This document shows, piece by piece, positions 6,733-29,700 of a stretch of DNA of 64,000 bases (positions are counted from its first letter, which is position 1; every line of letters starts with the position of its first letter). A program made the position numbers and the translations under genes. Source of the stretch: a virus (taxonomy: Duplodnaviria > Caudoviricetes); the IMG/VR virus record IMGVR_UViG_3300025671_000004, positions 1,865 through 65,864 of that record, one strand, 5' to 3'. The notes under the pieces were generated by a model. That model was not told where the DNA came from. It ran no database searches and saw only the letters and a list, made by a program, of their open reading frames with translations.

Positions 6733-6742
6733 AAAAAACAAA

Positions 6743-7388: not shown

Positions 7389-7390
7389 TC

Positions 7391-7920: not shown

Positions 7921-7929
7921 TATAGACCT

Positions 7930-8345: not shown

Positions 8346-8351
8346 AACAAT

Positions 8352-9093: not shown

Positions 9094-9112
9094 CTATTAA
9101 AATACAAGCAAT

Positions 9113-11136: not shown

Positions 11137-11407
11137 GATATCAATAGACAGCGTACAGCATTGGCGAGTCATGCTCTCTGACGAATACAGAACAGGTAAG
11201 GTTTTCGCATTATTCACTTCACTAAAGAAGGAAGATGTTCGAATACCAAGGTATGTGATGGAGCATTACAACTACGCGTTCTATGGTGTTGATGACGAAA
11301 AGCTTTGGAACCTAATAAGAACAGGCAAGACTGTCAACACAGACGATGGAGATATGATAGTAGTGGCCATAGAAAAGATACCCGGAGATCCTATGATTCT
11401 CAATTAA
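11114..11407 (+). CDS. Hypothetical protein
   Basis: Last ORF before the terminator. Confidence 0.6.
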   Translation: MNQKDHYRISIDSVQHWRVMLSDEYRTGKVFALFTSLKKEDVRIPRYVMEHYNYAFYGVDDEKLWNLIRTGKTVNTDDGDMIVVAIEKIPGDPMILN

Positions 11408-11468
11408 GATATACCCTGCGGATGCATGCAGGGAAGTTTGGTTTGTCATTATTGTTTTGTTACTGTTG

Positions 11469-11500
11469 ACCCGGTGGTGCATCACGCCGGGTTTTCTTTT
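11469..11500 (+). terminator. Intrinsic terminator ending the early operon
   Basis: ACCCGG...CCGGGT followed by TTTCTTTT. Confidence 0.75.
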
Positions 11501-11577
11501 AGAAAAAATGTAACGATTTGATTTTCAATAAGTTAAACAATATTTAGGACAACGTTCTCATTTTCAGTAGTTTTTTA

Positions 11578-11585
11578 TATATTTG
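11578..11585 (+). promoter_or_regulatory. Bacteroidetes -7 promoter element for the replication block
   Basis: TATATTTG 9 nt upstream of ATG 11595; an IHF-type palindrome lies at 11511-11535. Confidence 0.65.
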
Positions 11586-11594
11586 CAAACGGTT

Positions 11595-11909
11595 ATGATA
11601 GTGTTAAACGATTTAGTAGACACCATATGTGATGAGCTATTCATCACGCGTGAAGAATTCTTCTCAGCCTCAAAAAAGAAGGAGTGTCACACAGCGAGGC
11701 AATTTTTATTTTACATACTCTACGATGAGATCGGCTTATCCTCAAGTTTCATTCAGAAGTACATGGTGATGAATTCGAGGGATATAGCAAGATCTACAAT
11801 CATCGATGGAGTTAAATCAATGAGTCAGAAGATTGACTCGAACCCTTTATACGCATCTAAATTAAATCAAATAAAATCTAGTTATGAACAAAGAAAAATC
11901 AATTTATGA
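11595..11909 (+). CDS. DnaA C-terminal-like HTH protein
   Basis: SKKKE..TARQFLFY...RSTIIDG resembles Bac_DnaA_C. Confidence 0.7.
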   Translation: MIVLNDLVDTICDELFITREEFFSASKKKECHTARQFLFYILYDEIGLSSSFIQKYMVMNSRDIARSTIIDGVKSMSQKIDSNPLYASKLNQIKSSYEQRKINL

Positions 11910-12498
11910 GGTTCTGTCTAGCGTAGACGTATCCTCGAAGATCGAAAAGAAAGGCGATGGTCGCTACTCTTCCAACTACATGTCTTGGGGTCATGCTTGG
12001 AATGAGCTTAAGAAGTTATTCCCGGAGGCCAAGCGAAACGTGTACGAGGATCCCAACACCGGTCTCATTTACTTCTCTGATGGGCGCTATGGCTATGTCA
12101 AAGTTGGTATTGAGATTAATGGTATCGAGATGATTGACTACCTGCCTATCATGGACAATCGGAACAACTCAATACCTGTTGAGAAGATTACATCCTTTGA
12201 TGTCAACAAGACAATTCAGAGATCTACCACCAAGGCGATAGCCATGCATGGGTTGGGCATTAGCTTGTGGTTAAAGGAGGAAGAGCCTTCAGACGAGGAC
12301 TCTAAATCAGCAAAGCCCGCAGGTAAAAAGCTTATCACACTCAACGTAGGGGATGAGAATTGGTCAAGAGTACTCAAATATGTTGAGGCCAACAACCACC
12401 TTTCTCTTGAAGAGATCATCTCCAACCTCAAGAGCAAGTACACGGTTTCCGCAGGCGTCAAGAAGGAGATCAAGTCAAACTTAGAATCTAACGGTTAA
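11884..12498 (+). CDS. sak: Sak (Rad52-like, DUF1071) single-strand annealing protein
   Basis: YMSWGHAW, LPIMD.RN and VNKTIQR...KAIAMHGLG motifs. Confidence 0.88.
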   Translation: MNKEKSIYEVLSSVDVSSKIEKKGDGRYSSNYMSWGHAWNELKKLFPEAKRNVYEDPNTGLIYFSDGRYGYVKVGIEINGIEMIDYLPIMDNRNNSIPVEKITSFDVNKTIQRSTTKAIAMHGLGISLWLKEEEPSDEDSKSAKPAGKKLITLNVGDENWSRVLKYVEANNHLSLEEIISNLKSKYTVSAGVKKEIKSNLESNG

Positions 12499-12503
12499 TT
12501 CAT

Positions 12504-13244
12504 ATGGGGAGTGTCAGTAAAGACTTAGATTTATTGCGCAACGACCTTGAGTACTATCATGGTATTGGTAGGAAATACCTAAGCAACTCAGACATTAACG
12601 TGTTGCTAAAGGATCCACGTCAGTACGGTGTACCTAGGCCGGATGATTTAAACTTGGCCATGGGGAGGTATATTCACACCTCCCTATTAGAGCCACACAA
12701 GGTTCAAGACATACTTACGATTGATGTTTCAAGTAGAAACACCAAAATCTACAAGGACTTCTTGAAGGCTGAGAACTTAGACTTTGTCATGCTTAAGAGC
12801 GAGCGTGATAAGTGCGATAGCATTATCAAGGCTGTGACATCAAACGTTCGATTCTTCGACATCATATACGAGGATGGCAACATGTATGAGGAGCCGGGCA
12901 TAAAGGAGATCCATGGATACAAATTCAAGGGTAAGGCAGATATCATTACGAGCTCACACATCTTGGATGTTAAGACCACGTCAGATATCAATAAGTTTAG
13001 GTCATCAGCCTACGCTTATGGCTACAACAGCCAATGCTTTCTGTACCAAGAAATATTTGGTAAGCCAATGAAGTTCTTGGTCGTTGACAAGTTTACGTTG
13101 CAGTTGGGTATATTTACACCCACATCTGCATTCGTTTCTAGCGGCGAAGAAAGAGTCAAGAGGGGCGTTGAGCTATATGAGAAGTATTTCGGACTTAATC
13201 CAATAAGCGATGTCAAGGATCACTACATTGAGGAATATCTTTAA
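12504..13244 (+). CDS. PD-(D/E)XK exonuclease (DUF3799/RecE-like)
   Basis: YLSNS, G..IH..LLEP, KGKADI, DVKTT and Y..Q..LY motifs. Confidence 0.85.
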   Translation: MGSVSKDLDLLRNDLEYYHGIGRKYLSNSDINVLLKDPRQYGVPRPDDLNLAMGRYIHTSLLEPHKVQDILTIDVSSRNTKIYKDFLKAENLDFVMLKSERDKCDSIIKAVTSNVRFFDIIYEDGNMYEEPGIKEIHGYKFKGKADIITSSHILDVKTTSDINKFRSSAYAYGYNSQCFLYQEIFGKPMKFLVVDKFTLQLGIFTPTSAFVSSGEERVKRGVELYEKYFGLNPISDVKDHYIEEYL

Positions 13245-13362
13245 GAGAAACAGATACCTCACGATTAAAGTACCAATGATTGTCAACTCTCCAATAACGA
13301 AGTCTGAGATCATTGAGCAAACAAGCAATTATTTACAACAAAAAATAACCATCAAATTATGA
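13228..13362 (+). CDS. Possible small ORF (44 aa, TTG start)
   Basis: An open frame fills the gap and ends in an ATGA overlap with the next gene. Confidence 0.35.
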   Translation: MRNIFKRNRYLTIKVPMIVNSPITKSEIIEQTSNYLQQKITIKL

Positions 13363-13634
13363 GCAAAGAAAAAGTATTTGCAAACGGAATGATAGTTAAG
13401 GTGCGCGAGGATGCGCCCGAGTGGGCTATCTGTAAACTGTCAATCAAAGTTGAAGACTTCGTTGAGTTCTTAAAAGAGAACGAAGACAAGGGTTGGGTAA
13501 ACTTGGATGTGAATGTCGGAAGAACAGGCAATGCGTATGCCTCTCTTGACGATTGGAAACCATCGAATGATGGAGGAAAGAAGACTTCACAGAAAAAGGT
13601 TGAAGATGACTCAGAGGACGATGTTCCATTCTGA
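13359..13634 (+). CDS. Putative single-stranded DNA-binding protein
   Basis: Acidic tail ending DDVPF; follows Sak and the exonuclease. Confidence 0.7.
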   Translation: MSKEKVFANGMIVKVREDAPEWAICKLSIKVEDFVEFLKENEDKGWVNLDVNVGRTGNAYASLDDWKPSNDGGKKTSQKKVEDDSEDDVPF

Positions 13635-13652
13635 CGATTCACAATGAATCAT

Positions 13653-13677
13653 AAAAGGGCCGTTCTGCGGCCCTTTT
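13653..13677. terminator. Bidirectional intrinsic terminator
   Basis: AAAAGGGCCG-TTCTG-CGGCCCTTTT. Confidence 0.75.
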
Positions 13678-13702
13678 GTATCTTAAATGAAACATACCTA
13701 CG

Positions 13703-13918
13703 ATGACACAGAGAAAGTTAAACACAGAGCCTCTGAGTGGGCAAAAAACAAATCCTGACAATCATCTCACTATAGCCAATAAAGAATATGAAATTGATTT
13801 GTATAAAAAAGCCATCAAAGATATCGATGAAAAGATATCTAGATTGGAGGACGACAAAACGTTTTTGAATCGGGTTATCGGCAGGTTAGAAAATGAAATC
13901 AAAAGTTTAAAATCATGA
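13703..13918 (+). CDS. Small coiled-coil protein
   Basis: Heptad pattern. Confidence 0.6.
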   Translation: MTQRKLNTEPLSGQKTNPDNHLTIANKEYEIDLYKKAIKDIDEKISRLEDDKTFLNRVIGRLENEIKSLKS

Positions 13919-14232
13919 AAGAAGAAAACATTATCAAATCGACTACAGAGAAGAAAGTTCTAAGAGAGTCAAAGAAATTCCTTAGGTGTACAATCGGCAG
14001 CATGACCGACCTAAGAAGAAAGCTTCAAGGCATATTGGTTGGTGTCTATACCAACAACAATGTCGAGTTCTATGTCATATTTGTGCCGAAAGGTATGATG
14101 ATTAATGGCAGAAATTTGAAGTACTTCAGAAGGTACCCAAATGACGTTCAATCCACCGGAGAGATTAGTGATAGCAGGGCTTACATCGAAGGATACAAGT
14201 TCGAAGATATGGTTGAAGAAGTATGGGAATGA
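13915..14232 (+). CDS. Hypothetical protein
   Basis: ATGA overlap. Confidence 0.6.
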   Translation: MKEENIIKSTTEKKVLRESKKFLRCTIGSMTDLRRKLQGILVGVYTNNNVEFYVIFVPKGMMINGRNLKYFRRYPNDVQSTGEISDSRAYIEGYKFEDMVEEVWE

Positions 14233-14400
14233 CGAAAATGTCGGAAATAACAGTCCTACTTCTCTCTGTATACACTATCTCTTTTCTTTATTATTTATTT
14301 TTTTTATATACATGTAATAAAAATAAACATAAAAAGAATAGTCCTTATGAATGAGCAACTTAGTTAAAACAAAGCGACATTAAATCGACATGAGCATGAC
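14233..14400. other. Putative replication origin
   Basis: TGTCG...AT-rich tract...CGACA repeats directly upstream of the primase-helicase. Confidence 0.5.
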
Positions 14401-16807
14401 ATACAATGTGACGATATTCAAGGATATCAAGGATACTAGCACTCCATTCTACCGATCGGTAGGCGTTGTGTTGGGTAGGATAAGGGATGGCGCATCAAAA
14501 GACCTTGTCAAAAAAATTCGCGCTGAAAAGAGGAAGGCTGAGAGGCAAGAGTTGAAGAAGAGCCTTCCATCCATTTGCTTCAGCGGCAAGTTCTCTCGAA
14601 GAGAAGACTCTGCGCTTGTTGAGCACAGCGGGTTGATTTGCCTAGACTTTGATGGGTATCACAAGTCTAAGGACTTGCTTCAAGACAAGGAGCGCATGTG
14701 TAACAGCCCATACGTTTACTCGGTTTTCATTAGTCCATCGGGTTCGGGACTTAAGGTCTTGGTTAAAATTCCAAGAGATCCCGAGAACCACAAGAACTAC
14801 TTCAATAGTTTGCGTGATCACTTTGACTCACCTTACTTCGATAGCACATCTAAGAATGTGAGTAGGGTGTGTTACGAGAGCTACGATCCGTTGATTTATG
14901 TCAATGAGAACTCATCTGTTTGGTCAGAGATATCTGAGCCCGAATACACCGAGGTCGACAAGAGTATAGATCAACCAACCATCCCAATCACGGATGAAAA
15001 TAAGATTGTCGAGATTTTGGTCAAGTGGTGGTCAAAGAAGTACCCAATGGAGGTTGGTGTCAGGAATAATAACGCGTTCGTATTGGCCATGGCCATGAAT
15101 GAATTTGGTATCAACAGATCTCTCGCTGAGTATGTTCTGAATCAGTACGCTACGCAAGATTTTTCCCTTGAGGAGATAAAGAGGACCATTGATTCCGCCT
15201 ACTCCAAGACCGACAAATGGGCCACCAAGTATTACGAAGACCAAGATACTATCAACAATGTTAAGGCTCAGCTAAAGCGAGGGACTAGCAGGAAGGACGT
15301 TAAAGCAAACTTGGTGACATCGGGGATCCGTACTGATATAGCAGAGGCTGTTGTTTCTAGGGTTGAGGAGGATAGTGAGAATGGTGTGTTTTGGACCAAG
15401 AACGATAAGGGTAAAGTTCAGATAGACCACATCATGTTCAAGTCTTTCTTGGAGGATAATGGCTTTTACAAGTACTGCCCGGAGGGAGGAAAGAACTACG
15501 TCTTCGTTAAGGTCACCAACAACTTGGTTGACCATACCTCAGAGAAGGAGATCAAGGACTTCGTGCTAAACCATTTACTTGAGTTGGATGATGTTACGGT
15601 GTACAACTACTTCGCTGATCAGACGCGATTCTTTAGGGAGGAGTTCTTGTCATTGCTATCCACGATTGACATCTACTTCATTGGTGATACCAAGTATGCA
15701 TCATACTTGTACTACCGCAACTGCGCTGTGCAGGTGACTAAGGATGACATCAAGATTATGGATTACATGGATTTGGGTGGATATGTTTGGAAGGATCATG
15801 TGATCAATAGGAGCTTTTCTGTTACACTATCCATTGATTGCGACTACTCTCGATTCATTGAGAATGTTTGTAATCATGAGTTGGAGAGGATAAAATCCAT
15901 GCGTAGCACTATTGGGTTCCTGTTACATGGGTATAAAAACCTATCGTACTGCCCGGCCGTAATATTGAATGATGAGGTTATTTCCGACAACCCCGAAGGT
16001 GGTACAGGTAAGGGAATCTTCATCAACGCCATATCACAGATGAAGAAGTTGGTTGTGATTGATGGTAAGTCTTTCACGTTCGAGCGATCGTTCGCATATC
16101 AATTGGTTTCTGCCGATACGCAGGTGTTATGCTTTGATGACGTCAAAAAGCACTTCGACTTTGAGCGTTTGTTTAGCGTAGTGACCGAGGGCTTGACGCT
16201 AGAGAAGAAGAATAAGGATGCCATCAAGATACCATTTGAGAAATCCCCGAAGGTGGCCATAACAACCAACTACGCTATACGAGGCGCCGGTAATTCATTC
16301 GCTAGAAGGAAGTGGGAGCTAGAGTTTCATCAACACTACCGTAAGCACTTCACTCCGTTGGATGAATTTGGGCGACTGATGTTTGGAGATTGGGATGATG
16401 AAGAGTGGGCGATGTTCGACAACTACATGATCTCGTGCCTTCAGATGTACATGTCAAAAGGATTGGTTGAGAGCAAGTTTGTTAACCTCAAGATACGTCA
16501 GCTTAGTGCTGAGACTACGCACGACTTTATTGAGTGGTGTGGGTTGATAGATTCAAACGAGGAGAACTCTATGCTTGCACCCGATAGGAAGGTCTACAAG
16601 CAGGACTTGTATGATTCGTTCATATCGGAGTATCCCGATTATGGGCCTAAGTCTAAGATGACAATCAGTCGTACGAAGTTCTATCGGTGGCTCCACAGCT
16701 ACTCAGTTTATCGATATGGTATTCAACCCGATGAAGGTAGAGATGTGCGCGGTAGATGGATAATTTTCCTATCTGAGAGACCAAATGAAGAAGTGATTGA
16801 TATATGA
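14390..16807 (+). CDS. Primase-helicase (BT4734/VirE-N-like primase, PriCT, D5-like SF3 helicase)
   Basis: HSGLICLDFD, FISPSG.GLK, R.CYESYDP, G.RNN, Walker A GGTGKG and ITTN motifs. Confidence 0.9.
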   Translation: MSMTYNVTIFKDIKDTSTPFYRSVGVVLGRIRDGASKDLVKKIRAEKRKAERQELKKSLPSICFSGKFSRREDSALVEHSGLICLDFDGYHKSKDLLQDKERMCNSPYVYSVFISPSGSGLKVLVKIPRDPENHKNYFNSLRDHFDSPYFDSTSKNVSRVCYESYDPLIYVNENSSVWSEISEPEYTEVDKSIDQPTIPITDENKIVEILVKWWSKKYPMEVGVRNNNAFVLAMAMNEFGINRSLAEYVLNQYATQDFSLEEIKRTIDSAYSKTDKWATKYYEDQDTINNVKAQLKRGTSRKDVKANLVTSGIRTDIAEAVVSRVEEDSENGVFWTKNDKGKVQIDHIMFKSFLEDNGFYKYCPEGGKNYVFVKVTNNLVDHTSEKEIKDFVLNHLLELDDVTVYNYFADQTRFFREEFLSLLSTIDIYFIGDTKYASYLYYRNCAVQVTKDDIKIMDYMDLGGYVWKDHVINRSFSVTLSIDCDYSRFIENVCNHELERIKSMRSTIGFLLHGYKNLSYCPAVILNDEVISDNPEGGTGKGIFINAISQMKKLVVIDGKSFTFERSFAYQLVSADTQVLCFDDVKKHFDFERLFSVVTEGLTLEKKNKDAIKIPFEKSPKVAITTNYAIRGAGNSFARRKWELEFHQHYRKHFTPLDEFGRLMFGDWDDEEWAMFDNYMISCLQMYMSKGLVESKFVNLKIRQLSAETTHDFIEWCGLIDSNEENSMLAPDRKVYKQDLYDSFISEYPDYGPKSKMTISRTKFYRWLHSYSVYRYGIQPDEGRDVRGRWIIFLSERPNEEVIDI

Positions 16808-18270
16808 GTAATGACGTTATAGATCGAACATCGGGATATACTGATGACATGATGGTAGAGCAGCTCAGAATTATGAGAGATGTCATGTCAAAAAAAGTGT
16901 CTATAAAGGTTGGTCGAGGACGATCATCTAAGGTGATAGAAAAGTATAAGTACGCAGATGCTGATGACCTTATACCAAAGATTGAAAAAAGTATTGAGTA
17001 TTACGAAAACATGGGGAGAAACAGAAGTAAGATAACGCTAAGAGATTATCAAGAAGAGATAGCCACCAAGGCGTCTCACATAATGGAGGAATCGGGTTTC
17101 GTCTATCTATCGATGGAGGTTAGAACCGGGAAAACGCTGACATCACTTAGGTTGGCGGAAATACTTGGGTGCAGGAAGGTTGTCTTCTTGACTAAGAAGA
17201 AAGCTATATCAAGCATAGAGGAGGACTATGAAAAATTGAATCCCGACTTTGACTTGATAGTCTCCAACTACGAGAGCATGCACAAGTTGAATGTTGATGA
17301 GTGTGACCTTTTTATATTGGACGAGGCCCACACATTAGGGGCCTTCCCAAAGCCAAGCCTTCGCGCAAAGCAATGTAAGGCTTTTATCGAGAGGTTTCAT
17401 TGTGGCGTGGTTCTTTTGTCGGGTACGCCGACACCCGAATCTTATTCACAGATGTATCATCAAGTGTATGGTATACCGGGCAATCCCTTTGAAGAGTGCA
17501 AAAACTTCTACCGGTTCTGTGACGAGTATGTGAACGTCAAGCAGAAGAAGGTGAACTCGATGTACATCAAGGATTATTCGGGTGGAACTGAGAAGATCAT
17601 ATATGAGATGGAGCCATACACCATATCATGGTCACAGAAGGAATCGGGCTTTTCGGTTAAAACGGTGGAGCATGTGCTTAGGGTTGAGATGCCAAAGCAA
17701 ATAGAATCCATGATAAAGAGATTGAAAAGAGATCTGATTATAGAGGGCAAGGAGGAGGTTATATTGGCGGACACAGGTGTCAAACTTATGAGTAAGGTTC
17801 ATCAAATGTGTTCCGGAACTGTTAAATTTGAGAGCGGTAAATCAATGGTCTTGGACACGTTTAAGGCTGATTTTATTAAAGACTACTTCAAGGGAAAGAA
17901 AATAGGCGTGTTCTACAAGTTTAAGGAGGAATGGAATGCTCTGCGTCAAGTATTTGGAAAAGAATACTTGACAGATAGCTTGGATGTGTTCAACAACACA
18001 GATTGTCAGGTTATAGCCTTACAAATTCAGTCGGGTCGTGAGGGTATAACCTTACAAAAAGCTGATGCGCTTGTGTATTACAATATTGATTTTTCCGCCA
18101 CAAGCTATTGGCAGTCAAGGGATCGAATGACAACCAAGGAAAGAGAGCGCAATGATGTGTATTGGGTCTTCTCTGAAGGTGGCATAGAGGATGATGTGTA
18201 CAAGGCTGTTATGGATAAGAAAGACTACACGAAAAAACATTTTGAAAAAGGATTATTAAGTAGATTATGA
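16804..18270 (+). CDS. SNF2-like superfamily 2 helicase
   Basis: LRDYQ, RTGKT, LDEAH, LSGTP, SGREGITL and QSRDR motifs. Confidence 0.88.
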   Translation: MSNDVIDRTSGYTDDMMVEQLRIMRDVMSKKVSIKVGRGRSSKVIEKYKYADADDLIPKIEKSIEYYENMGRNRSKITLRDYQEEIATKASHIMEESGFVYLSMEVRTGKTLTSLRLAEILGCRKVVFLTKKKAISSIEEDYEKLNPDFDLIVSNYESMHKLNVDECDLFILDEAHTLGAFPKPSLRAKQCKAFIERFHCGVVLLSGTPTPESYSQMYHQVYGIPGNPFEECKNFYRFCDEYVNVKQKKVNSMYIKDYSGGTEKIIYEMEPYTISWSQKESGFSVKTVEHVLRVEMPKQIESMIKRLKRDLIIEGKEEVILADTGVKLMSKVHQMCSGTVKFESGKSMVLDTFKADFIKDYFKGKKIGVFYKFKEEWNALRQVFGKEYLTDSLDVFNNTDCQVIALQIQSGREGITLQKADALVYYNIDFSATSYWQSRDRMTTKERERNDVYWVFSEGGIEDDVYKAVMDKKDYTKKHFEKGLLSRL

Positions 18271-18533
18271 AAACACAAAAGACAGATTATTTCGGTGTAT
18301 CAGAGGTTAAGAACCCTAGCTCAAAGTGGGCTAATAAGAGATACCAAGGGTCATTTTACAACCAAAAAACAGGTCGTCACTCATTCAAGTATTTTGACAA
18401 TATGAGGGATGCGGCCAAATGGGTTGATCTTCAGTTGATACGAGTTGGAAAGGATCCGGTGAACGTATTAATCAGATTGAATGGGGAAAGAGCAACAGAT
18501 ACAGGCAAAGAAGATCAAGGAGCTAGAATCTAA
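18267..18533 (+). CDS. AP2-like DNA-binding protein
   Basis: YFGVS...KYFD..RDAAK.VD pattern. Confidence 0.6.
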   Translation: MKTQKTDYFGVSEVKNPSSKWANKRYQGSFYNQKTGRHSFKYFDNMRDAAKWVDLQLIRVGKDPVNVLIRLNGERATDTGKEDQGARI

Positions 18534-18735
18534 AGGGTACTACGTTCTAAAAATTATCAAATCAAACAAGAATGGTATACCTGACTTGTTGGCTATACCA
18601 AAGGGGAGCGATGTGGAGTTTTATGAAATCAAAGCACCCGGAGGAAGGCTTAGCAAGCTGCAGGAGTATAGATTAAAAGAACTTACCGAGCATGGCGTAA
18701 AAGCTGATGTTTACTCGGGCGAAAAATCAAAATAA
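18481..18735 (+). CDS. VRR-NUC nuclease (Holliday-junction resolvase-like)
   Basis: EQQIQ, GIPDL and EIKAPGGRLSKLQ motifs. Confidence 0.88.
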   Translation: MGKEQQIQAKKIKELESKGYYVLKIIKSNKNGIPDLLAIPKGSDVEFYEIKAPGGRLSKLQEYRLKELTEHGVKADVYSGEKSK

Positions 18736-18736
18736 T

Positions 18737-19306
18737 ATGAATCCAATTTTATCAAAATCAAACAAGCTAAAAGAAGTTGTGTTTACGGTTACCGGGCACA
18801 GCGTTGATTGTAAATCTAGAAAGCACGACCATGTGTTCTCTAGGATGATCTACTCAAAAATACTCAACGAACATGGCTTGGGCCCTTCTGCTATATGCAG
18901 GACATTAAACAAAGATCACTCAACTATTATTCACTACTTAGACGAGTTCGGCCCGCTATGCATATCGAAACCATATGTAAGAGAGTGGTACAATTCGGCT
19001 AGGTCAATGTTCAACTTTTCATCAAGCAATTTGGCTACCATAAGCAGGTCTGAGATGATACAAAATTACTTGAAGGTAGTGAGCTCGGTTGCTGAGGTGA
19101 GGAATGTATTAAAGTCTTTTAGAGATCAAATACCCGATGAGGTTGCAGATGAATTTTTGAGAGCCATATCAATGTCAGAAGGGTTGGTGTCAAACGGTGA
19201 GGGCGAGATAAGAGTTGGTTGTTGTAAAAATTGCGGCAGCAAGAATATTAATGATTCGATAAAGGGGAGTCTTTTTTGCTTTTCATGCGGAGAGAAACTT
19301 GCTTAG
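18737..19306 (+). CDS. DnaA C-terminal-like HTH protein with C-terminal Zn ribbon
   Basis: SRK..HV.SR...LNKDHSTIIHY and CKNCG...CFSCG. Confidence 0.75.
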   Translation: MNPILSKSNKLKEVVFTVTGHSVDCKSRKHDHVFSRMIYSKILNEHGLGPSAICRTLNKDHSTIIHYLDEFGPLCISKPYVREWYNSARSMFNFSSSNLATISRSEMIQNYLKVVSSVAEVRNVLKSFRDQIPDEVADEFLRAISMSEGLVSNGEGEIRVGCCKNCGSKNINDSIKGSLFCFSCGEKLA

Positions 19307-19328
19307 TAGGGAGCTAAAAATTAATAAA

Positions 19329-19541
19329 ATGGCAGTAGAAAAACCGAGACAAATAGAATGTGATGAGTGGCTTTATAAAGGTTGCTTTATCCAAGAATCA
19401 GAACACCCACAACTTATTGGCAAGTACGAAGTATTTAAAAATGATGAACTACAAACCCACGTTGGCAGATGCTATACGTTTACCGAAGCAAAAAGACTTT
19501 GTGAAGAGAATGAATGCTTTGAAAATGCACTTGAATTTTAA
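19329..19541 (+). CDS. Small cassette-like hypothetical protein
   Basis: AT-rich ORF whose stop is followed within 4 nt by GCCTAAC. Confidence 0.7.
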   Translation: MAVEKPRQIECDEWLYKGCFIQESEHPQLIGKYEVFKNDELQTHVGRCYTFTEAKRLCEENECFENALEF

Positions 19542-19544
19542 TGT

Positions 19545-19870
19545 GCCTAACGGTGTGGCTATGTGTAGTGCCGTAAATCGAGGACTAAACTTTAAAATAT
19601 TACAGAACTATGAACGAAGCAAAAAACATTCATAAACCCAATAAAAAAGCATGGAGTATAGCCTTTGTTATGTGGCGTTATTTTAAGTGGGTATTAATAC
19701 CTGCATGGCTTATTTTATGTGTAAACTTTGGTGCTTTTTTAGGTAAGTACCTTTGGCTGATAATGACATACTTTGGTATAGAAGATAACTTTGTGAGATT
19801 TATGGATTGGTTGATTTGGTTTTAATGCCACATAACAAGCGTATAGCAGCCGTTTTAATAGCTGTTATAC
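19545..19870 (+). mobile_element. attC-like sites bounding a gene cassette
   Basis: GCCTAAC...GGCTAT/ATAGCC...GTTATGTGGC (19667-19676) and its perfect complement GCCACATAAC (19827-19836), followed by a second stem. Confidence 0.65.
19610..19825 (+). CDS. Small membrane protein starting inside the attC-like site
   Basis: 71 aa, hydrophobic; stop 1 nt before GCCACATAAC. Confidence 0.6.
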   Translation: MNEAKNIHKPNKKAWSIAFVMWRYFKWVLIPAWLILCVNFGAFLGKYLWLIMTYFGIEDNFVRFMDWLIWF

Positions 19871-20033
19871 CCGATAAGGTATAATAATGGTATATCATAC
19901 CCGAGCGGGTATAAAAGTTACTCAAACACGGTTCTATGTGCTATTAGCTGAACCATTTATCCACCATTAACAGCAGATATAGCCGATAATGATGGATATG
20001 TCATACACTAAGTATGAAGTAAAGAATAATAAC

Positions 20034-20447
20034 ATGAAAAGATTTGAAACCAAAGAGGATTTAGATCGGGAGATAAAAGCGATACAGAAGTATTGCTCAA
20101 TGTTCGGATGTTCGTATGAGAAGTTAGGTATCAATGATATAGATTTCAAGCTAATGTCGGGTATGGATGTTATTGGGTATGTAGAGGTTAAGGGCCGGCT
20201 ATCCTATCTGAGGAATGCGTACCCTCTACCAATAGCAATGAGAAAGCTCGTCAAGCTTTGCGACAAGATGCTAAACCCTATTGTCATTTGGGCCTGCGAT
20301 GATGGCATTATTTATGGCGACCCTAGAGAACTTAAGGGGATCGCCAAGTTTTCCGGAAGGAAAAAGCAGAGAGAAGGATCTTTCCACGATAGAGAGATGA
20401 TGGTCTACTTTGATAGACAGAGTGGCCTAAAGTATTTGAGGTATTAA
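20034..20447 (+). CDS. PD-(D/E)XK-like nuclease
   Basis: DIDF...YVEVKGR motif. Confidence 0.7.
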   Translation: MKRFETKEDLDREIKAIQKYCSMFGCSYEKLGINDIDFKLMSGMDVIGYVEVKGRLSYLRNAYPLPIAMRKLVKLCDKMLNPIVIWACDDGIIYGDPRELKGIAKFSGRKKQREGSFHDREMMVYFDRQSGLKYLRY

Positions 20448-20461
20448 TAAAACACACTATT

Positions 20462-20767
20462 ATGATTGCATACAAATTAGTAAGAAAAATGAAAGATGGT
20501 AGCTATGCTCCATTGTTTATCAACAAGAAAAGCAGAATCCCTGTCGGTGAATGGCTAGATGCCGAAGAACACAAGACCAAGGGGTTCGCGGTTAGAAAAG
20601 GTTGGCATTGCACATTGAAACCATACGCCCCTCACCTTTCGGAAAAAGGAAGGGTGTGGGTTGAGGTTGAAATTGATGACACAGAGCTTTACGATCGCCC
20701 CGAGTCACAGGGTGGCACATGGGTATTGGCTCAAAAGATGAAGGTTGTGGGTGAGATCAGTATTTGA
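20462..20767 (+). CDS. Conserved hypothetical protein
   Basis: AYKL...PLFIN...GFAVRKGWHC...QGGTWVLA; last + strand gene. Confidence 0.75.
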   Translation: MIAYKLVRKMKDGSYAPLFINKKSRIPVGEWLDAEEHKTKGFAVRKGWHCTLKPYAPHLSEKGRVWVEVEIDDTELYDRPESQGGTWVLAQKMKVVGEISI

Positions 20768-20778
20768 TCTCACCACAA

Positions 20779-23700
20779 TTAATCTTTCTTAGATCGATCC
20801 ATTCGTCTTTCCATCTCCTTGACTCTTCCCGATGGCGAGTCTTTTCCATACAATCTTTCGTATAGGTCCGGATACTCCTCCTTGAGTTTGCTCTTGGGCA
20901 TTGTTGGATTCTTCTTCTCCTTAATGATGTCTTTGTAGATCATGGTGTTCATAATCATTCTAACATCTGCGTAGAATGGAACGTATCCAAGGTTCCCCGC
21001 CATCTCAATGACAGCTCGGTAATTCTCTAATTCATCCCTCTTGATTGCGTCAATCTCTACCTTTTCCTTTTCGACTAGTTGCTTTCCTGCAAACTCCATT
21101 GTTCTCAAAATTGGAGACATTGGCCCCATGATATTCATCATGATATCCATCATCATATTCCTTCTAGGATCGGGCTGAATAGGAACAATTGTATACGCGA
21201 TCTTATCTTCATACGCATCGTAATCACCATCCCTAAGCATATCTAGATACTTCATGTTAATGTACTCGACATTCATATTGATGAAGGTCTTGGCTATGTT
21301 ACCAAAGTCTCTTCCTAATATCAAGCCCGATACACCCGATACCACGGCGCGACCGAAGTCTAATGTAGTATACTCGTCATCATCTCCCGATATTAATGAT
21401 CTAAGCGCTCCGGAAAGATACTGAGTCAAGGCAGAGTAGATCACCATACGAGTTGCTACTGCGGTCATGATTGCGGCACCTTGTCTAGGTGTTATGTCAC
21501 CCCTTCCGATTGCTGCGTACATGCCATATCGGAATGAGTTGAACTCATACACAAGGAATCGCGTCATGTAGTTGTTGAATATGTGAAGTATCTGAGAGAA
21601 TGCCGATCCATTGATTGGTCTACTTTTCGCCGCAGAAAGAAATGGATTGTCAGATGCACCTAATAGCACAGATTTTTTGTCGGCCATTTTTCTAGCCGCA
21701 TCCAATGCATCTTGGTTTTCTGAGATGTACTCTTGATCGTTGTTCTTGATCTTTTCAAAGTCTATATCCTTTCCCGATTGTTTCTTAAACTCCTTGGCTA
21801 GGGCCCCAAACCAAAATGGTCTCATGATAGCTTGGTCGGGGGTGGTGATCATTTTGTCTGCGATCACCTCTGATGCATCTCGAATAGACCCAAGACCAAC
21901 GCCTCTCACTTTGAATGACCCAATTTGCTGAGCCTTATTGAGGATGTCATTCTTGGCTCTCGACCTATTAACGCTTCCTGCATCATCTTTCAATGTGCCA
22001 TCAATCATCCTCCCTGTAAGTGTACCTTGTGGGTATATCCTAGACAACTGAACAGATCCAACGTTTTCCGCTATGGCGACACCATCAGGGCTAGAATATA
22101 TCGATGCGTACTTCATGCCCGAGAAAAAGGATTTCGAATCAACCAACATAGCAAAAGCCGCGTTTGATAAAAATTCAGATATTGCTCGTGTTGACTTGGC
22201 TAGGACTGCTCTGTATCCCCACTTTGAAAGATATGAAGTAACGTCATCCATGAATGTTGTTTCATGCGTTGATGACATCAGCACACTCTCTACGGCAGAT
22301 TTGTGAGCCATTTTTATAACATCGAAGAGTTTCTCTTTCTCGGCCTTCTGCTTCCTCTTCTCCTCTATCCTTTTTTCTATGAGCTCCTTATCTTCTTTCG
22401 ATGCAGATTCTAGTTGGCTGTTCAAGTCTTCCAACTCTTTTGCAAACTTCTTCTTTATTTCATTTTCCGTGTTTCTTATCGTTCTATAAGATGTCCTCAC
22501 AGGCTCAGTCATATAGTAGTCCATGAACACATCTCTAGCTGCCGTAGACACAGACTTAAATGCGTCAAAGTCAATCGGATTAACCTGCCCTGTTCTCTCC
22601 TTTATGATGCCTGTTCTTGTCGATGGATTCATCGCATTCATGGCGTTTTGGGATTGAGTTAACTGTACACCGCTTGCGCTTGGGTCGACAATTACTGACA
22701 GGTGGTTGTAGGCATTCAATGGCTTCATGCCCTCTCCATGAACAACTAAACCAAGATGGGTGGCCAATGGGAGCAGGGATTGATTTATCTTCTCGATTGA
22801 TCTTATGGCATTTCGCTCTGCCCTGTTTAATGAGTTCTCTATTTTTTGAAGATCGATTTGACCGTTTGTAGAAAAGTCCTTCCTTATCCTCTTCAGAATC
22901 TCCGCATCCTTCTTAGTGTAATCTCCTTTTTCTGCTTCTGCATACTCGATTGTTGCGTCCAAAAACTTTATTGCGGGATTTACCTTGCTATTACCGGGGT
23001 TGTTTTCAAATTCCTTCTGAATTAGGTACGCGGTCATCTTGTACTTGGATTCGGTCACACTATTGTGATTGTAGGAAAAAGCCTCGTACAGCTTTTTGTC
23101 CAATCCCGACAAGGTCTCCAACACCTTCTTGTTCTCTGTCTTGAATCTACTGTGACCTATTGCGGTATTTTCAAATAGGGTGTTGTATATGGTCGGTGTT
23201 TTGAAGTCTCCAAAAACTTGATCTATAAAGTATAGTGGAGTTCTTTCGGCCATCACCGTATACTTATTCTTACCTTTAGAGAACAAAGCTTTAGCGCTCG
23301 CAATAACCCTGCTTATGAGCAATGGCTTTGCATTCATTACCGATTCCGCCAACTCTATTGTAGCTCTTCTAGACTCGATCCTCTCAACCAATACTTGTGT
23401 TACGTTGTGAGCGTACCCATTATTGGCATTGTCTACTACCTTTTGAAGTTTCTTTAGGTCGGATGGCGACATTTTCATCATGGCCTCGGTATCCTCTATC
23501 AGTTTTTTCAATCTTCTGAGTAGGGCCTCTTCAGCTTTTGGCAAACCTTCGGGTATACTAAGCTTGAGGGACATGATGTCACTTATTATACTCCTACGCT
23601 CTGCGTCAAGCTCTTGATCTGTCATGGTGTCTGAGACCTCATTTGATAGTATGGATAGCTTCAGTCGCACCATCATATCTCTTTCTTCGATGGTAATTAT

Positions 23701-26700
23701 ACCATCGTTCACCATCTTATCGAGCGTCTTCTCGTACATCAATTTACCATCAGAAGACATCACTTTGTCAGAGTAATCTTCAAACGCCATCTGAAGGTCC
23801 ACAACTCGTGCATTTTCTGCATCAACTGCATCCATCACCGTGGTTACTCGGTCAACCAACTCTCTAGCCTCTCCAAGATCCAACACGGCTGCACTCGTTC
23901 CCAACTCCTCTACTATCGAGATGTACTCATCCATGACAGATGGTGGGATGGATTTCTCAGAGATTGAAAGCATTTTGTCAACCAATGCATTGTATCCAAA
24001 GAGGCTTCCTAACTTCTTCTTGATGTTGTCCTTGGCCTTTTTACGCATCACTTTAAGCTTTGCAGACCTATCCTTGTACTCTTCGTTCTTTACAACGTTG
24101 GATACAAAGTCAGCAAACGCTCTTATGGATGCGTCAGATGCAGGATTGACTCGGCTAAATCTTTTGAGGATTTTACCCGCTTGGCGCATTGTCAACTTCT
24201 TCTCCTTCACCAATTCGTAAACCTCTTTTGCCAACCTTTGTTGAACGGCCAACACAGCTCTGATACCACGGCCTTGAGTTCTTATCTGAGAAGAAAGGGC
24301 TTGTTTCGCTGATATGGTTATGTTCTCGACATCAAATGTTTGACCCAATATGGTGCTTGCCTTTGGTGACTTCCTAATTGAATACCCATGATTCATCGTA
24401 GTAAGCATCACAGCCCTATTCCTAGTAATATCGTCTGCCTTTTTGTAGAAATCGCTAGCCTCCAATATCTCTATGGCCTTTGCAAGTATATCTCGTTTCT
24501 TGGCACCCTCATCAGCCATGGTGTTGTAGTTTTTCTTGATGCGACTTGCTACAGCTTTGTAGCCTTCTTTCTTCGACATCTCTTTCTCTAACTCCTCTTT
24601 CTTTCTCTGCTGTCTAACAACATTCATGCTTGACTTGGGGGGTTCTGCACCAATCATCTTATTCTCAAACTCGGTTGCCCTACGACTTGCCAAGCGATCG
24701 AATTCAGCTTTGCTCATGTATATCTTATCCTCTTCAGCAACATCCTCTGTTTCGGAAAGAGCTAAGTTGTCGAGTTCCCTTTGACTTAGGTTCATCCTTC
24801 TTCGAACGTTGTTGGCATCAACTTCACCCGCAAAACTTTTGTAAACATCATGCAGCATGCTCCGTGCCGTCTTCGGCCCCATTATGGTGTATATCTTTGC
24901 TAAGTTTCTCTGCTCTTCATAGTTCAGATACCTTAATGCAGCCAACTTGTTTCCTCCCCAAGGCATGTCCTCTATGTATTGTATGGCATGTTGGATTTCA
25001 TGCAACATTGTTCCTTTTAGGGTATCCTCAAAATCAGAAAGGCGTGAAAATACCTTTCTCATGTCCGTGGATATCTTCTTGGGGGTTCCCGCATAATCTT
25101 TCGCCCTTCTCTCATTTCCTTGTACCAAGATTTTAATCATATCGTCAATGGCGCCATTGACATCATTATCGGGACTCGAGTTTTTTATAATGAAGTCCAT
25201 TGTTTCTCTCTCTAGCCTTCTCATAAGAGGGCTGTCGGGGATTTTTGAACCTTTTTTAGCGAATGCTAAATGCTCTGAGACCCTAGCGATATACTCTCTC
25301 ACAGCTAGTGGAAAACTGTCATAGACTCTCTGTACTACGTTCGCAGAAATTATACTACTCCTGAGGGCTTTGAAGTTTTCCTCACCATCGGTTTCTTGTG
25401 TTGGAACCACGACCGTAATCAATTGGGTGTCAGTCCTTCCGACCGGAGTGCTATACTCCCCTGCAAACATGCTGTATATGCCCGAATCCCCTCTCCCTGT
25501 TTCGCTAATCATTAGTTTGAATGGAATGTTCTTTATGGAAGGATAGTGCTTGAATAGCTCGGGGTGATCTATTACATCCCCCACAGTCAGATCCTTCTTG
25601 CTCATAGCTATAACATCTTCAACATCCTGCCAAGATCTAACATCTAATTTAATCCTAGCATCACGGTCACTTATTTCAAACATCCACTCAGAATTAGCGG
25701 CTTTGTAAAAGCTAGTCAACGCTTTGATCTTCTTAGCGGACTCACCGGCGGCATCCATCTCCATGGCTTTGCGCTTCTTGTCTGCTAACTCTGTAGACAG
25801 GTTTGCATTCTTGGAGCCAATGTACTTTCTAACCCTGTTCTCAGACTCCATCTCTTCTTCTGTTCTGAGTTCAAGCGGGGTGTTAGACTTGGCGTACTCA
25901 ATCCTCTCCTCGATTTCTTGTATCTTCCTGTTGACTTCTTGCCTTTTATTTGATGGAAGTCCTTTTCTAGATTTTTTAAGGTCATCAATCAATGTGTTTA
26001 AGGCGGATATGTATGCATCTAAAGTTACCTTTGGCTTTTCTTTTGCAGGCGCCTTTGGCTTTTCTTTTGCAGGTGCCTTTGGCTTTTCTTTTGTACTTGG
26101 TTTAGTTGGTGTTTCTTTTTTCTGAGCTAATGAAACGTTAGCTATTGCATCTGTAAAATTCTTAAATCTTCTCTTAGGCGTCCCTGTTGGTGAGTCAGAG
26201 ATAACAAAACCAATAGGAGATCCGTCAGTCAAGACAGATTCGCTCCTGTCTATAATAAAACCACTACCGGATGGCGATGTGTATGACCAAACCGATTCCC
26301 CTTTTCTGTTTTTACTTTCTTGTTTTATTTCTGCATCTCCAAACTTCTCAACTTGTCCTACTTTTTCTTCGGTTTCAGTTTTTGGAATCTCAGCTTTCGT
26401 CTCCTTTGGCGTAGGCTTTTTCTTCGCTGCAGGCTTTTTCTTCGCTGCAGGCTTTTTGACGGCGGGTTTTTTGGCAGCGGGCTCTTTGACGGCGGGTTTT
26501 TTGGCAGCGGGCTCTTTCTTTACGGATGGCTCTGCCCCCATCATTGTTCCGCCTAATAAAGGACCAAAAGCTTTAGAGCTTATTCTACCATCAAGAAAAT
26601 CCTTTTGAACAACTCTATCTTTCGGATCCCCTTCCCTCATTACAAACCTCTGAACTATTTCCCCATCGGCATTCTTGTAGTAGATCACATTTACGCCATT

Positions 26701-29700
26701 AGCTAAAAATAAATTATCCGACTCAAATACGGCCAATACCTCAACCGCCCCTTCGGGAGTTTCATACTCAGCCTCTTCAGCAGTCTCTACTTCTTCAGCA
26801 GTCTCAACTTCCTCGTAAGCCTTCATGACTTCCTCCGTGAGAGCAGCTATGTCTTCCTCTAATGACTTGTACTCCTCTGTTCCCGGAACCATATCAGAGA
26901 TATCATCCTTCGCCATCTGAAGAGCCTCCTCTGCATCCATGGCATCATAGTCATCTATAATCTCTTGGATGTCTCTTTTTTGCTTGGTCGGTACTTGCTT
27001 GGTCGGTTCCTTCTTGGTCGGTTCTTGCTTGGTCGGTTCCTTCTTGGTGGGCTCTACCTTTTTAGGCTCGGGCTGAGGTTTGCGCTTAACAGGCGTTTCT
27101 TGCGCTTTTTTTATAATCAGTTCCGCTTTTCGTGGATTAAACTTACCATCCTCTCTACTTTTTTCGTTAATCTCTTGTAGCCTCCGCTTTATTGTGTTTA
27201 CATCTATATCTTCATTCTCGTCAAAAGCCAATGATATAGAATAGAATCCACGCCTACGAACAAAATCTTCATGCCTACCTTCAATTAAAGAAATTATTCT
27301 CTTGCCGTTCTCAACTCTTGTGCTAAATACAACCTTGCCATAAGGAACCTTACCCCTTATATCTCCTGTACCTAGTCCTCTCGCAAAGTTTGTCACTCGC
27401 TTACCAACCAATCGCTGAAATCCTTGAAACGTTCCCTCTATGGTTACTTCGGATTGTGGTAATATCGTTTGCTCCTTCTTGGCAGGTTCTTTCTTGGCAG
27501 GTTCCTTCTTCTTTGTAGCCTCCTTCTTTGGCTCGGTCTTCTTCTCAGCCTTCTTTGGCTCGGCTTTCTTAGGCAACCTAGTCATGGTCGCTCTTTTTTC
27601 ATCCCTTACAAATCCAAATTTTTCATAGAAGGCCCTAAGTTTTTGAGGGGTGTCAAATCCCTCCACTTTCTCCATTCCTGTTATTAGATTTGCGGTTAAT
27701 TTAAGGGTTACGTTATTCTTGTCCGCATACTCCGTGACGATCTTCATTATAGCGGAACCATTACCTGCTCTTTGACCTCTTTTTTCGCTTACGACTTCAT
27801 CTATTTTTACAGTATTGTCATCAATAAATCTAAGTGTTACTCTTCCAAGCAGATTTCCATCAGCATCAGTTGCCGCATATCCTCCCTGAATATCATCAAA
27901 TGGGAAAACCTTATTCATATCTTCGAAGAATTGATCGCTATTTGTATTAGCCTTCTTCTCTTCTTTCTTGGGTTCTTCCTTCTTGGGTTCAGCTTTTTTG
28001 GTAGGCTTTTCCTTAGTTTGTCTGTAGTATTCGTCAAAATACTTCAATTCAGACTCAGCCTCCTCTTTGGTCATATCAAGTAGTGTGCTTGCATTGGTGT
28101 TTGGAGCAACTGAGTTACCTATTCGAACACCATAATCAAGCGCATTCTCAAGATACCCTGTGTCTGCTTTTTCTTGTAATGCAGCTCTGTATTGCTCCGG
28201 AGTAGACTCAATAATAGCATCGAAAAACTCATGGTAGATGAAAGTATTCTTTGCCGAGGCTCGCTCTCTTTCTTTTTTGTTTTTAGGTCTAGCAGGCTCA
28301 GCCTTCTTCTCTTCTTTCTTGGGTTCGGCCTTCTTGGTCGGTTCCTTCTTGGCGGGTTCTTCTTCTAATGCTTTTAATTTTGCATCATATTCGGCGTTGA
28401 TTTGCCTATCCCTTATTTTAGATGCTTCTTTATTTTCATTTATAAAAGCCTCTTTACCTTTTTGAAAACTTCCCGGGGTCATCAACAAACTTCTTGTGCC
28501 CATAGAAGTAGCTCCATCATCATAAGGGTTAATGCCAATCCATTCTTCAGCGGCCTCTATTAATTCATCTCTTGTTTTAGCAGATTTAACCCTATCAAGA
28601 GGTTTATTTAATTCCTCTTGTCTTTCTCTTTCTATATCAGCTTTTTTAGCTTCTATATCGACCTCGGCTTTTTTCTTTGTCGGTTCCTTCTTGGCGGGCT
28701 CTTCCTTCTTAGGCTCAGCCTTCTTCTCTTCTTTCTTGGGTTCAGCCTCTTCAGCCCGGAACTCTGCCTTAGGTTTAGAAACTAAACTCTCAACTGTCTT
28801 TACAAGCTCAGGATTAGTTCCATCTGTTTTTGCCTTATGATAAGATTCAGATATTGATTTTGCTTTATTGTTGTAATACTTGAAAAAATCTTCTCTTGTT
28901 AAACTATCTACTTTTCCACCTATTGCATTCCAAAAACCTTGTGAATCATCATCATAATAAATAACATCTACATCTTTATTACTATTAAATATAGATGCAA
29001 TAGCCATACTGCCTTCTCCTATAGCACCTGATTTATCAGAAGTTCGTTCTCCTTTATTCCTTTCTATGCTTAAAACTTCAACCTCTCCTGCATCATTAAT
29101 CTCATAAGATATTCTACCATTACGCCCAAAGTCAGCCGTTATAAGTGTAAAGCCTTCATTTTTTTGTGCTTCTGCTTCTGTAACATTAGACAATATGTTA
29201 ATTGTCTTCAAAGCATTTGTAGTTGTTTCTACATTAGCCTCCTCTGTTGTGGCCTCCTTCTTCTTTAGTTCAGCCAATTCTTCATCATATTTGGCGTTGA
29301 TTTTTTTTAAAACTTCTTCCGGTGTCTCACCTGTTATTCTTTCGACTGTAGGCTTTCCATCCGGATCCGTCTTATTGGAAACGTATAATCCACCAAACTT
29401 TTTATCGCGACCGATTATACTTCCCAATTCATTAAGGCTATAACTTCTCCTTGCCTCTATGTCCTCTTCCTTGGTCTTCTCTGTTGTGGTCTCCTTCTTC
29501 GGTCTTCCTCGCTTCTTTTTAGGTTCTGCTTTCTTTATCTCCTCCTGCACTTTCTCGAAGAACCCTTCTAGTGATTCACCTCTTGCCATGGTATCGGAGA
29601 TCGTAATCATGAAGTCCACGATATTCTTTGGCGTGGCTGTACTTAGGAATACAGGTGCGCCAAGAATGCGCTCTGCGTACCTGTTGATGAGGTCTCGTAT

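Follow-up and report, generated by a model that had tools for sequence, protein, structure and literature searches.

The attC sites of integrons carry two boxes, R'' with the pattern RYYYAAC and R' with the pattern GTTRRRY (PMC9892861), and a cluster of attC sites lacking an integron integrase (CALIN) is defined in IntegronFinder 2.0 as at least two called attC sites that lie close together without intI (PMC9024848). Qi et al. 2023 report 17 integrase-less attC clusters in phages, virulent ones included, and recombination by IntI1 of 5 of the 6 phage attC sites tested; inverted GTTRRRY motifs and terminator-like features at the boundaries are also recorded there (PMC9892861). A second system close to the locus described here is the promoter/stem-loop (PeSL) cassette of T4-type phages. 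The locus lies in a window of 64,000 nucleotides, namely bases 1865-65864 of a 65,864-bp IMG/VR record of a freshwater phage that has direct terminal repeats and is rated complete. It consists of a small open reading frame (ORF), o71, which is enclosed by two inverted arms and has an AAC...GTT-type site on either side (coordinates are collected in Table 1). The unit is tentatively read here, with a probability of about 0.45, as a single and probably stranded gene cassette of integron-like kind.

The unit resembles the phage CALINs (PMC9892861) in that a lytic-type phage without an integrase carries small accessory genes followed by AAC...GTT hairpin sites. The two differ in that the published sites were called by IntegronFinder/HattCI, whereas the narrow covariance model built for the present work gives the sites here no score above noise, and in that the arms here are private to their gene, measure 10-16 nt, place one half-site inside coding sequence and bracket one cargo gene. 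By eye, 143 nt separate the single long site of the window from its single short site, which is truncated, and intI is absent. The likeness to PeSL cassettes lies in a conserved intergenic stem-loop (plus a promoter in G001, a 24.7-kb fragment of a much larger, unrelated phage) that flanks small ORFs in a hypervariable slot, and in insertions, deletions and replacements between close relatives that are bounded by the element (PMC2839356, PMC4122927). A check of PeSL features found the hairpin at 2 of the 8 copies of a promoter-like repeat in G001. In the window there is a single hairpin, and a scan of 19826-19990 gave no promoter-like site of this type. PeSLs are direct repeats that serve homologous exchange, and they are not known to have either gene-private inverted arms or an AAC/GTT core.

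In the proposed mechanism, each unit would be closed by a private stem made of GTT and a sequence x near the 5' side and of the complement x' and AAC at the stop codon. The units would be joined by box-hairpin sites composed of AAC, a 4-6 nt spacer, a GTATA-type stem, a TATAC-type stem, a 3 nt spacer and GTT. When a single strand folds (most likely the + strand), the two kinds of stem, private and box, would together give an attC-shaped site on which a recombinase, perhaps a host tyrosine recombinase, may act; an exchange of strands at the AAC/GTT core would then remove or add a unit as a whole. In the window this would correspond to a long site at 19545-19680, a single cargo gene and, at 19823-19871, a short site that is truncated, with a palindrome in place of the GTT end. 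A preliminary description, made from the letters of the stretch, had already read the locus as an integron-like attC cassette. The strings that it quoted (GCCTAAC, GGCTAT/ATAGCC, the arms and the second stem) are all present where it had placed them, and o71 does begin downstream of GCCTAAC and upstream of the left arm, through which it reads. The cassette reading is partly supported, by the architecture, its recurrence and the unit-sized variants; an assignment to integrons is not established.

Private arms around o71 and around unrelated genes

In the window, the 14-nt arms GTTATGTGGCGTTA (19667-19680) and TAATGCCACATAAC (19823-19836) are complementary at 13 of 14 positions, and the inverted repeat extends to 16 nt with 15 matches (19665-19680 and 19823-19838), leaving 142 nt between the arms. 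The sole mismatch is a G.T on the + strand. No other 16-nt repeat in the window reaches 15 matches with its arms 10-300 nt apart. When up to two mismatches are allowed, the 14-mer has 2 matches against 0.32 expected, a count reached in 3 of 100 shuffles, and no further copy of the 14-mer was found in the window. Since 14 of 60 dinucleotide shuffles of the window (mean 0.38) contain an equal repeat, the window repeat taken alone is not significant, and it owes its significance to recurrence elsewhere, as seen in a test of the G001 ORFs and in a test of eight hairpin copies. A miniature inverted-repeat transposable element (MITE) or insertion sequence with terminal inverted repeats was considered and rejected, as the arms differ in every unit and the window has no second 14-mer.

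The ORF test took ATG ORFs of at least 40 aa and sought the best perfect pairing of GTT-x (ATG-30 to +130) with x'-AAC (stop-25 to +30), each ORF being compared with its own end and, as a control, with the ends of all other ORFs. On the + strand of G001, a private repeat of at least 9 nt is present in 4 of 60 ORFs, against 0.07 expected from cross-pairing. Three of these share the geometry of o71: the left arm (ATG+56 to +67) comes after TATAC plus 2-5 nt, and the right arm falls at stop+1 to +14, compared with ATG+57 and stop+11 in o71 itself. The fourth belongs to an out-of-frame ORF, has another geometry and is probably due to chance. The four proteins are unrelated to one another. On the + strand of the window, o71 alone qualifies (1 of 141 ORFs, 0.12 expected). 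The same test was applied to 80 loci that were kept from 83 IMG/VR relatives of the PDDEXK protein encoded downstream of o71; among their 946 distinct ORFs a single repeat of at least 9 nt occurs against 0.77 expected. This lack of an excess indicates that the architecture belongs to an imported module and not to the phage lineage.

The hairpin that follows o71 leads to the same feature. The window copy (19831-19871) has three counterparts in G001 with 95, 92 and 84% identity, two of which are complete and read ...AAC-AAGC-GTATAGCAGCC-GTTTTAAT-GGCTGTTATAC-CAT-GTTAG.... In the window, CCGATAAGG directly follows the second stem, so that no GTT is present and the CAT-GTTAG end of the other copies is missing. 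The preliminary description had noticed that this stem lacks its GTT end, and the full form of the site, ...AAC-AAGC-stem-loop-stem-CAT-GTTAG, was found in other contigs; judged by these copies, the second stem of the window is a truncated copy of a conserved site. The short-site pattern has one copy in the window and none in 100 shuffles. In JGI metagenomes, a scan for the pattern brought up seven contigs with the hairpin, of which three are near-copies of G001 and four are new contexts, and the IMG/VR pattern search returned G001 only. Across 8 copies of the hairpin on six sequences, the genes upstream differ and the sequence directly before AAC varies. The best GTT-anchored partner of a copy's own AAC box has 13, 10, 9, 5, 10, 6, 8 and 9 matches, that is, at least 9 in five of the eight, compared with a mean of 5.66 over 50 cross pairings, 4 of which reach at least 9 (mostly between homologous contexts, by our reading). 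The complementarity between a GTT end and an AAC box that had first been pointed out for o71 is thus a recurrent, gene-private feature of a cassette-like architecture. A search for the same cassette in other contexts had also been proposed; the hairpin stands behind different genes, and o71 is absent from the 80 related loci.

The left half-site does not depend on the protein that it runs through. The TATAC-GTT box occurs in all three reading frames across six ORFs, and the 14-mer ATTGGTTTTATACA is translated as GFIH in one G001 ORF and as LVLY in another, indicating that the box is a nucleic-acid element and not a protein motif. In o71 itself, the ~95 nt between GGCTAT and ATAGCC include the start and the first 19 codons. 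Additionally, GCCTAACGG with ~20 conserved bases stands 3' of the stop codons of three consecutive small genes in G001, where stop codons lie within AAC boxes (GCCTAAC and CACTAAC). G001 also includes the locus L082 of o70, the gene upstream of o71 (the fragment is itself labelled L089 as well), and the o70 region is 87% identical in nucleotides between the window and G001.

These observations bear on the possibility of a chance inverted repeat beside an unrelated conserved hairpin. Coincidence would suit the shuffled windows, the half-site motif, which is not enriched in the window (13 scattered sites that form no array), and the lack of enrichment in the 80 relatives. Opposed to it are the same geometry around unrelated genes in G001 and in two metagenome contigs (L095 and L098), the presence of "empty" units in L094, L098 and X17, and the own-versus-cross tests, all of which make chance very improbable.

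Natural variants and the place of the breaks

Variants of the locus were surveyed over 18700-20700 in Logan contigs of four public runs (X9, X10, X12 and X17), contigs only. Some runs leave parts of the stretch uncovered, and such gaps carry no weight in a survey of contigs. In four contigs, one per run, homology to the window ends at 19832-19834, in three of them exactly at 19834, and three different sequences stand upstream of the break; a fifth, loose contig end lies at 19821. A 1006-nt contig of X17, from a near-identical relative, carries other DNA upstream of 19834, keeps 19834-19871, has 14 nt (ATGTTAGGTGCTTA) in place of 19872-19957, which restore the missing ATGTTAGG end, and over 19958-20517 departs from the window by 3 differences and one gap. 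Another X17 contig matches the window to 19303 and then diverges, a further one keeps 19534-19577 alone (7 differences) with different DNA on either side, and a 720-nt contig in one run has the window arrangement unchanged. The breakpoints indicate an exchange of the slot 19304-19833 between very close relatives, with the AAC box as the right edge of the slot.

Two of the metagenome contigs differ by a whole unit. L094 and L098 have the upstream 46-aa gene and the downstream hairpin in common, and L098 has ~255 nt extra between ...CAyAAC and the AAGC-hairpin. The extra DNA comprises a 53-aa ORF, arms of its own (9 of 10 matches) and a long site (AAC-GGATAG-GTATAT...ATATAC-AAT-GTT). By eye, the box stems differ and still pair: the GGCTAT/ATAGCC of the window is GTATAT/ATATAC in the corresponding position of L098. 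There are also "empty" units, in which the arms are 20 nt apart (L094) or 7 nt apart (a contig of X17). The difference between L094 and L098 amounts to one clean event if the cut is made at AA|C behind the preceding stop codon, and to two events if it is made at G|TT. The comparison of variants therefore favors a cut at AA|C on the + strand, in which case both the start codon and the site would lie 5' of the cargo. With such a cut, each unit would carry the long site, its start codon and its first codons. Consequently, the chimeric proteins that the preliminary description expected from cassette swapping need not arise.

The same contigs bear on a further reading, in which a recombinase flips 19681-19822 and thereby switches o71 off. 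Inverted repeats of this size flank known invertible segments, and the flip would end the ORF after 23 residues. Such a switch is the least probable of the readings, since no strand-changing joint was seen in the contigs of the four runs (a result of little weight, as contigs can hide rare forms), an invertase gene (PF00239, PF00589) is absent, the flipped form encodes nothing, and the arms in other contigs enclose from 7 nt to more than 300 nt, unlike a switch.

The place of the GTT end in the window is occupied by a palindromic element. This element (19872-19957) is rich in GGTATA/TATACC boxes, stands behind the hairpin in L094, L095, L097 and L098, and may be a small mobile or protein-binding element that lies within the GTT end of the short site.

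The main rival to a cassette starts from these same conserved pieces. The hairpin, the GCCTAACGG module and the palindrome would be conserved regulatory or structural elements (terminators, promoters or protein-binding sites), and would serve co-infecting phages as points of homologous or homeologous recombination, by which they trade accessory genes through the Sak/exonuclease pair of the phage; the private repeats would be secondary. The phage does encode a Sak single-strand annealing protein and a DUF3799 PDDEXK exonuclease (11884-13244), and mosaics could be produced by these two without a site-specific enzyme. Furthermore, the promoter-like repeat directly follows two of the three G001 hairpin copies, the GCCTAAC module is constant behind different genes, no recombinase gene is found in the phage and no tyrosine recombinase gene in G001 or 10 relatives, and the shuffling of genes by PeSLs is published (PMC2839356, PMC4122927). 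As the DNA 3' of 19834 is all conserved and non-coding, the sharp break there could be the edge of a constrained element. This explanation accounts for the breakpoints and not for the private arms: it leaves unexplained why the 5' end of a unit is complementary to its own 3' end, why the arms start with GTT and end with AAC, and why the TATAC-GTT box sits within coding sequence in three frames. Neither strand has a T-run 3' of the hairpin, and a terminator scan of 19826-19990 was empty. It is regarded as possible, though less likely than a cassette.

Folding and comparison with attC sites

The first site had been expected to form an attC-like hairpin. The stretch 19545-19673 does not fold so: as it stands, 19543-19682 has a DNA fold z of -0.23 on the + strand and -0.31 on the - strand, no better than shuffles, and its best fold does not pair GCCTAAC with GTTATGT. 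In a circular-junction model of the window unit (sliced by script), a 15-bp stem, an internal loop and an 8-bp stem are formed (z -3.25, reached in 2 of 200 shuffles). The models of three units (z -3.25, -2.78 and -3.17) are closed hairpins in which an asymmetric internal loop separates the box stem from a private stem of up to 15 bp; the same three sites in the array have z -0.39 (19536-19682), -1.49 and -0.29. The complete G001 short site has, when folded, an outer stem and a 13-bp stem with an internal loop between them, with z -2.87 on the + strand versus -1.59 on the - strand. Its overall shape is that of the control attC_aadA1 of plasmid R100, which has an R stem, a spacer and an L stem with single-base bulges, and its fold is weaker than that of the control (z -4.73/-4.87). 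The short-site stem of the window (19841-19850/19861-19870) forms and is unremarkable alone (z -0.96); it is continuous on the + strand with one G.T pair and broken on the - strand.

The single mismatches in private arms (o71 and two L098 units) are all three G.T on the + strand, as is the hairpin-stem mismatch in the window and in G001 copy B; G001 copy A has an additional G.T and an A.G. Such mismatches would be G.U in RNA, and it is conceivable that the arms and the hairpin act there, a small mRNA being closed by a long-range stem and a 3' hairpin for stability or processing, with the pairing under transcript selection. The stronger + strand fold of the G001 site would agree with this, as would the RNA fold of 19826-19990 (-41.3 kcal/mol, z -3.24, 1 of 200 shuffles). 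G.T is, however, also the most tolerated mismatch in same-strand single-stranded DNA, so that it does not separate RNA from DNA, and if transitions are equally likely on either side, all four mismatches would be G.T by chance in about 1 case in 16. RNA stems leave the unit-sized insertions cut at AAC unexplained, an Rfam search of 18000-21500 with E up to 10 gave two weak unrelated matches and no family on the stretch, and none of 24 run rows with the stretch was recorded as RNA. An RNA function is accordingly regarded as improbable.

Compared with the classical attC (aadA1, R100), the phage sites have the same order, R'' (..AAC), spacer, stem, stem, spacer and R' (GTT..), they follow the stop codon in gene direction, and the unit start is complementary to its own AAC box. 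Their sizes, ~55 nt for the short site and ~130 nt for the long one, are also alike. The AAC and GTT triplets are present in the site copies, save that the short window site has its AAC and no R', and GCCTAAC (19545) fits RYYYAAC fully. The complementarity of a cassette start with its own R'' box, as described above, is found in the window, in G001 and in the hairpin copies. The sites differ from the classical attC in several respects. The control has bulges and a stronger fold, while the phage sites have no bulges and their R'' and R' boxes often pair at the triplet only; the AA|C cut suggested here would put the site 5' of the gene, the inverse of classical polarity; and the phage has neither intI nor attI.

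A covariance model, R1, was built from 7 class 1 attCs, with dfrA27 and cmlA1 among the held-out tests. Held-out real attCs scored 38.1, 33.7, 19.1 and 15.4 bits and a fifth, arr-3, 8.4 bits, with 4 of the 5 at E <= 0.3. For the window hairpin the score was 8.5 bits, with E 7.5 and on the minus strand, and with default filters and E up to 10 no match was found in the window, in G001 or in L092-L098. The covariance search proposed earlier thus left the phage sites no higher than noise. This negative result comes from a narrow model, with which one real attC scores no better.

Several results weigh against the cassette reading, among them the shuffle frequency of the repeat, the absence of an excess in the related loci, the scores of R1 and the recombination proteins of the phage. 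No match to PF00589 (Phage_integrase) or PF00239 (Resolvase) was found in the whole 65,864-bp record, which extends the earlier statement that no tyrosine recombinase was recognized in the window. PF00589 was likewise not found in G001 or in any of 10 genomes of related phages, of which 9 have a completeness of at least 90%, and no Xer-like gene was found in the record, in G001 or in these relatives; a Pfam scan of large ORFs on the metagenome hairpin loci gave no recombinase. Two hairpin-pattern scans of 185,579 prokaryote species genomes (one per species) returned zero copies. ACATAAC (19830) and GTTATGT (19667) are each one base off the RYYYAAC/GTTRRRY consensus, and by eye the two 7-mers of one site pair only at AAC/GTT in several copies. 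Extrahelical L-box bases, which set the choice of strand, are a defining feature of attC sites. The folding suggested by the preliminary description revealed no such bases in the phage stems, the arms of which are of equal length with a 1x1 G.T (or A.G) mismatch. The GCCTAAC box, moreover, is not gene-private, as the TTTTAATGTGCCTAAC module stands behind a different gene in X17. It is missing after o70 in 6 of 7 homologous loci, in which homology ends at the ORF ends, an outcome that the preliminary description had itself named as a refutation and that holds for the o70 boundary, and no private inverted repeat of at least 8 nt was found for o70.

Membership of the integron attC family is not established, as two defining features that were tested, bulged bases and a model score, are lacking. 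Units of this kind are already published for phages, and the present one is marked as a variant by its long private arms, its half-site in coding sequence and its apparent inverse polarity. A phage cassette system apart from classical integrons is rather unlikely. Such a system would combine a long private stem, a 5' box-hairpin site that includes the translation start, an AA|C cut and an enzyme other than IntI, such as a Xer-type recombinase of the host or a pair of structure-specific nuclease and annealing protein. It would exchange small genes between aquatic phages that are not related, in this case one of 66 kb and one much larger.

Genomic setting and significance

The unit sits at the end of the rightward gene block (~2073-20767); from 20779 the genes are directed leftward, the first leftward ORF encoding 4091 aa. 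The DnaA-C-like gene and the PDDEXK_14 gene are the left and right borders of the variable slot (Table 1), and the non-coding DNA between o71 and the PDDEXK_14 gene measures 163 nt.

Table 1. Features of the o71 unit and its neighbors (window coordinates).
Feature	Position	Strand	Remarks
Helicase	16804-18270	+	gene order around the unit
VRR-NUC	18481-18735	+	gene order around the unit
DnaA-C-like HTH and zinc-ribbon protein gene, conserved	18707-19306	+	Pfam Bac_DnaA_C 1.5e-4 (below cut-off) and Zn-ribbon matches
ORF o70, 70 aa	19329-19541	+	widespread small phage gene; stop at 19539-19541
Conserved module TTTTAATG-TGCCTAAC-GGTGT-GGCTAT...	19534-19577	+	o70 stop context, AAC box GCCTAAC 19545-19551, first half of long site
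Long site	19551-19680	+	spacer, GGCTAT 19557-19562, ~95 nt, ATAGCC 19658-19663, TTT, then GTT and private arm
ORF o71, 71 aa	19610-19825	+	cargo of the unit
Left arm TTGTTATGTGGCGTTA	19665-19680	+	GTT at 19667-19669, 57 nt 3' of ATG; GTATAGCC-TT before it
Right arm TAATGCCACATAACAA	19823-19838	+	overlaps o71 stop codon; AAC box 19834-19836
Conserved short site AAC-AAGC-GTATAGCAGC-loop-GCTGTTATAC-C	19834-19871	+	stem arms 19841-19850 / 19861-19870
Palindromic non-coding element (TATACCCGATAAGGTATAAT...GGTATATCATACCCGAGCGGGTATAAAA...)	19872-19957		in the place of the GTTAG end of other copies
PDDEXK_14 nuclease gene, conserved	19989-20447	+	Pfam 2.9e-7
101-aa ORF	20462-20767	+	phrog_12224 (1.7e-41), no assigned function

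The o71 protein is tryptophan-rich and hydrophobic and, judged by its composition, is a probable small membrane protein. It has three homologues, each of 71 aa and 77-82% identical, with 47 invariant columns, and belongs to no family of Pfam or PHROG; neither o71 nor the DnaA-like protein retrieved relatives when used as an IMG/VR query. For o70 there are 69 homologous protein clusters with 64-87% identity on contigs of up to 168 kb, no Pfam family above cut-off and no PHROG match, and its neighbors in seven IMG/VR loci are unrelated. Neither o71, o70 nor two other small ORFs were found in any of the 80 related loci, of which 70 have the helicase, 75 the VRR-NUC protein and 46 relatives of the DnaA-like protein. 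The closest named phage is an uncultured record with a helicase identity of 61%, and a low-stringency DNA search of the phage collection with the locus gave zero matches.

Other features of the genomes are recorded here in their own right. The phage also encodes a primase-like protein, and in its recombination module the Sak protein (8.6e-32) is followed by the DUF3799 exonuclease. At 19958-19998, an inverted pair TATCCACCATTAACAGC/GCCGATAATGATGGATA overlaps the PDDEXK start and is a perfect palindrome of TATCCACCATTA in L094. One arm of this pair, near the DnaA-C-like gene, resembles a DnaA box (8 of 9); DnaA boxes are not enriched in the window (16 matches, 19 expected). Between 2747 and 8447 there are six copies of a hairpin motif, AGGTTGCG-N4-CGCAACC-ATAAA, mostly directly 5' of small rightward ORFs and with two copies identical across 28 nt; the motif has the look of an early-region promoter, operator or terminator specific to the phage. 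The 4091-aa ORF (20779-33054, minus strand) has weak matches to the LPD23 "large polyvalent protein" and to GNAT, with long tandem repeats rich in lysine, glutamate and proline at 26000-29500. An N4-like phage with this ORF as its virion RNA polymerase was considered and rejected, as Pfam gives only LPD23 and the weak GNAT match. In G001, the promoter-like repeat of ~57 nt (TTGGCT, 17 nt, TATATT, by reading) has eight copies at 875-5860 that precede tRNA genes and small ORFs, two of them directly following a hairpin site; by its sequence it looks sigma-70-like rather than Bacteroidota-like.

The turnover of small accessory genes in phages is usually ascribed to illegitimate or homologous recombination. 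A site-defined exchange, unit by unit, would if true be a specific and testable mechanism that links phage mosaicism to integron biology. The window itself is one partly decayed example only, and the locus is a compact test case, with one cargo gene, a predicted junction (19835-19551) and natural variants with and without units in public metagenomes. It also suggests that attC-like boxes can hide in coding sequence and thereby escape models trained on clinical integrons.

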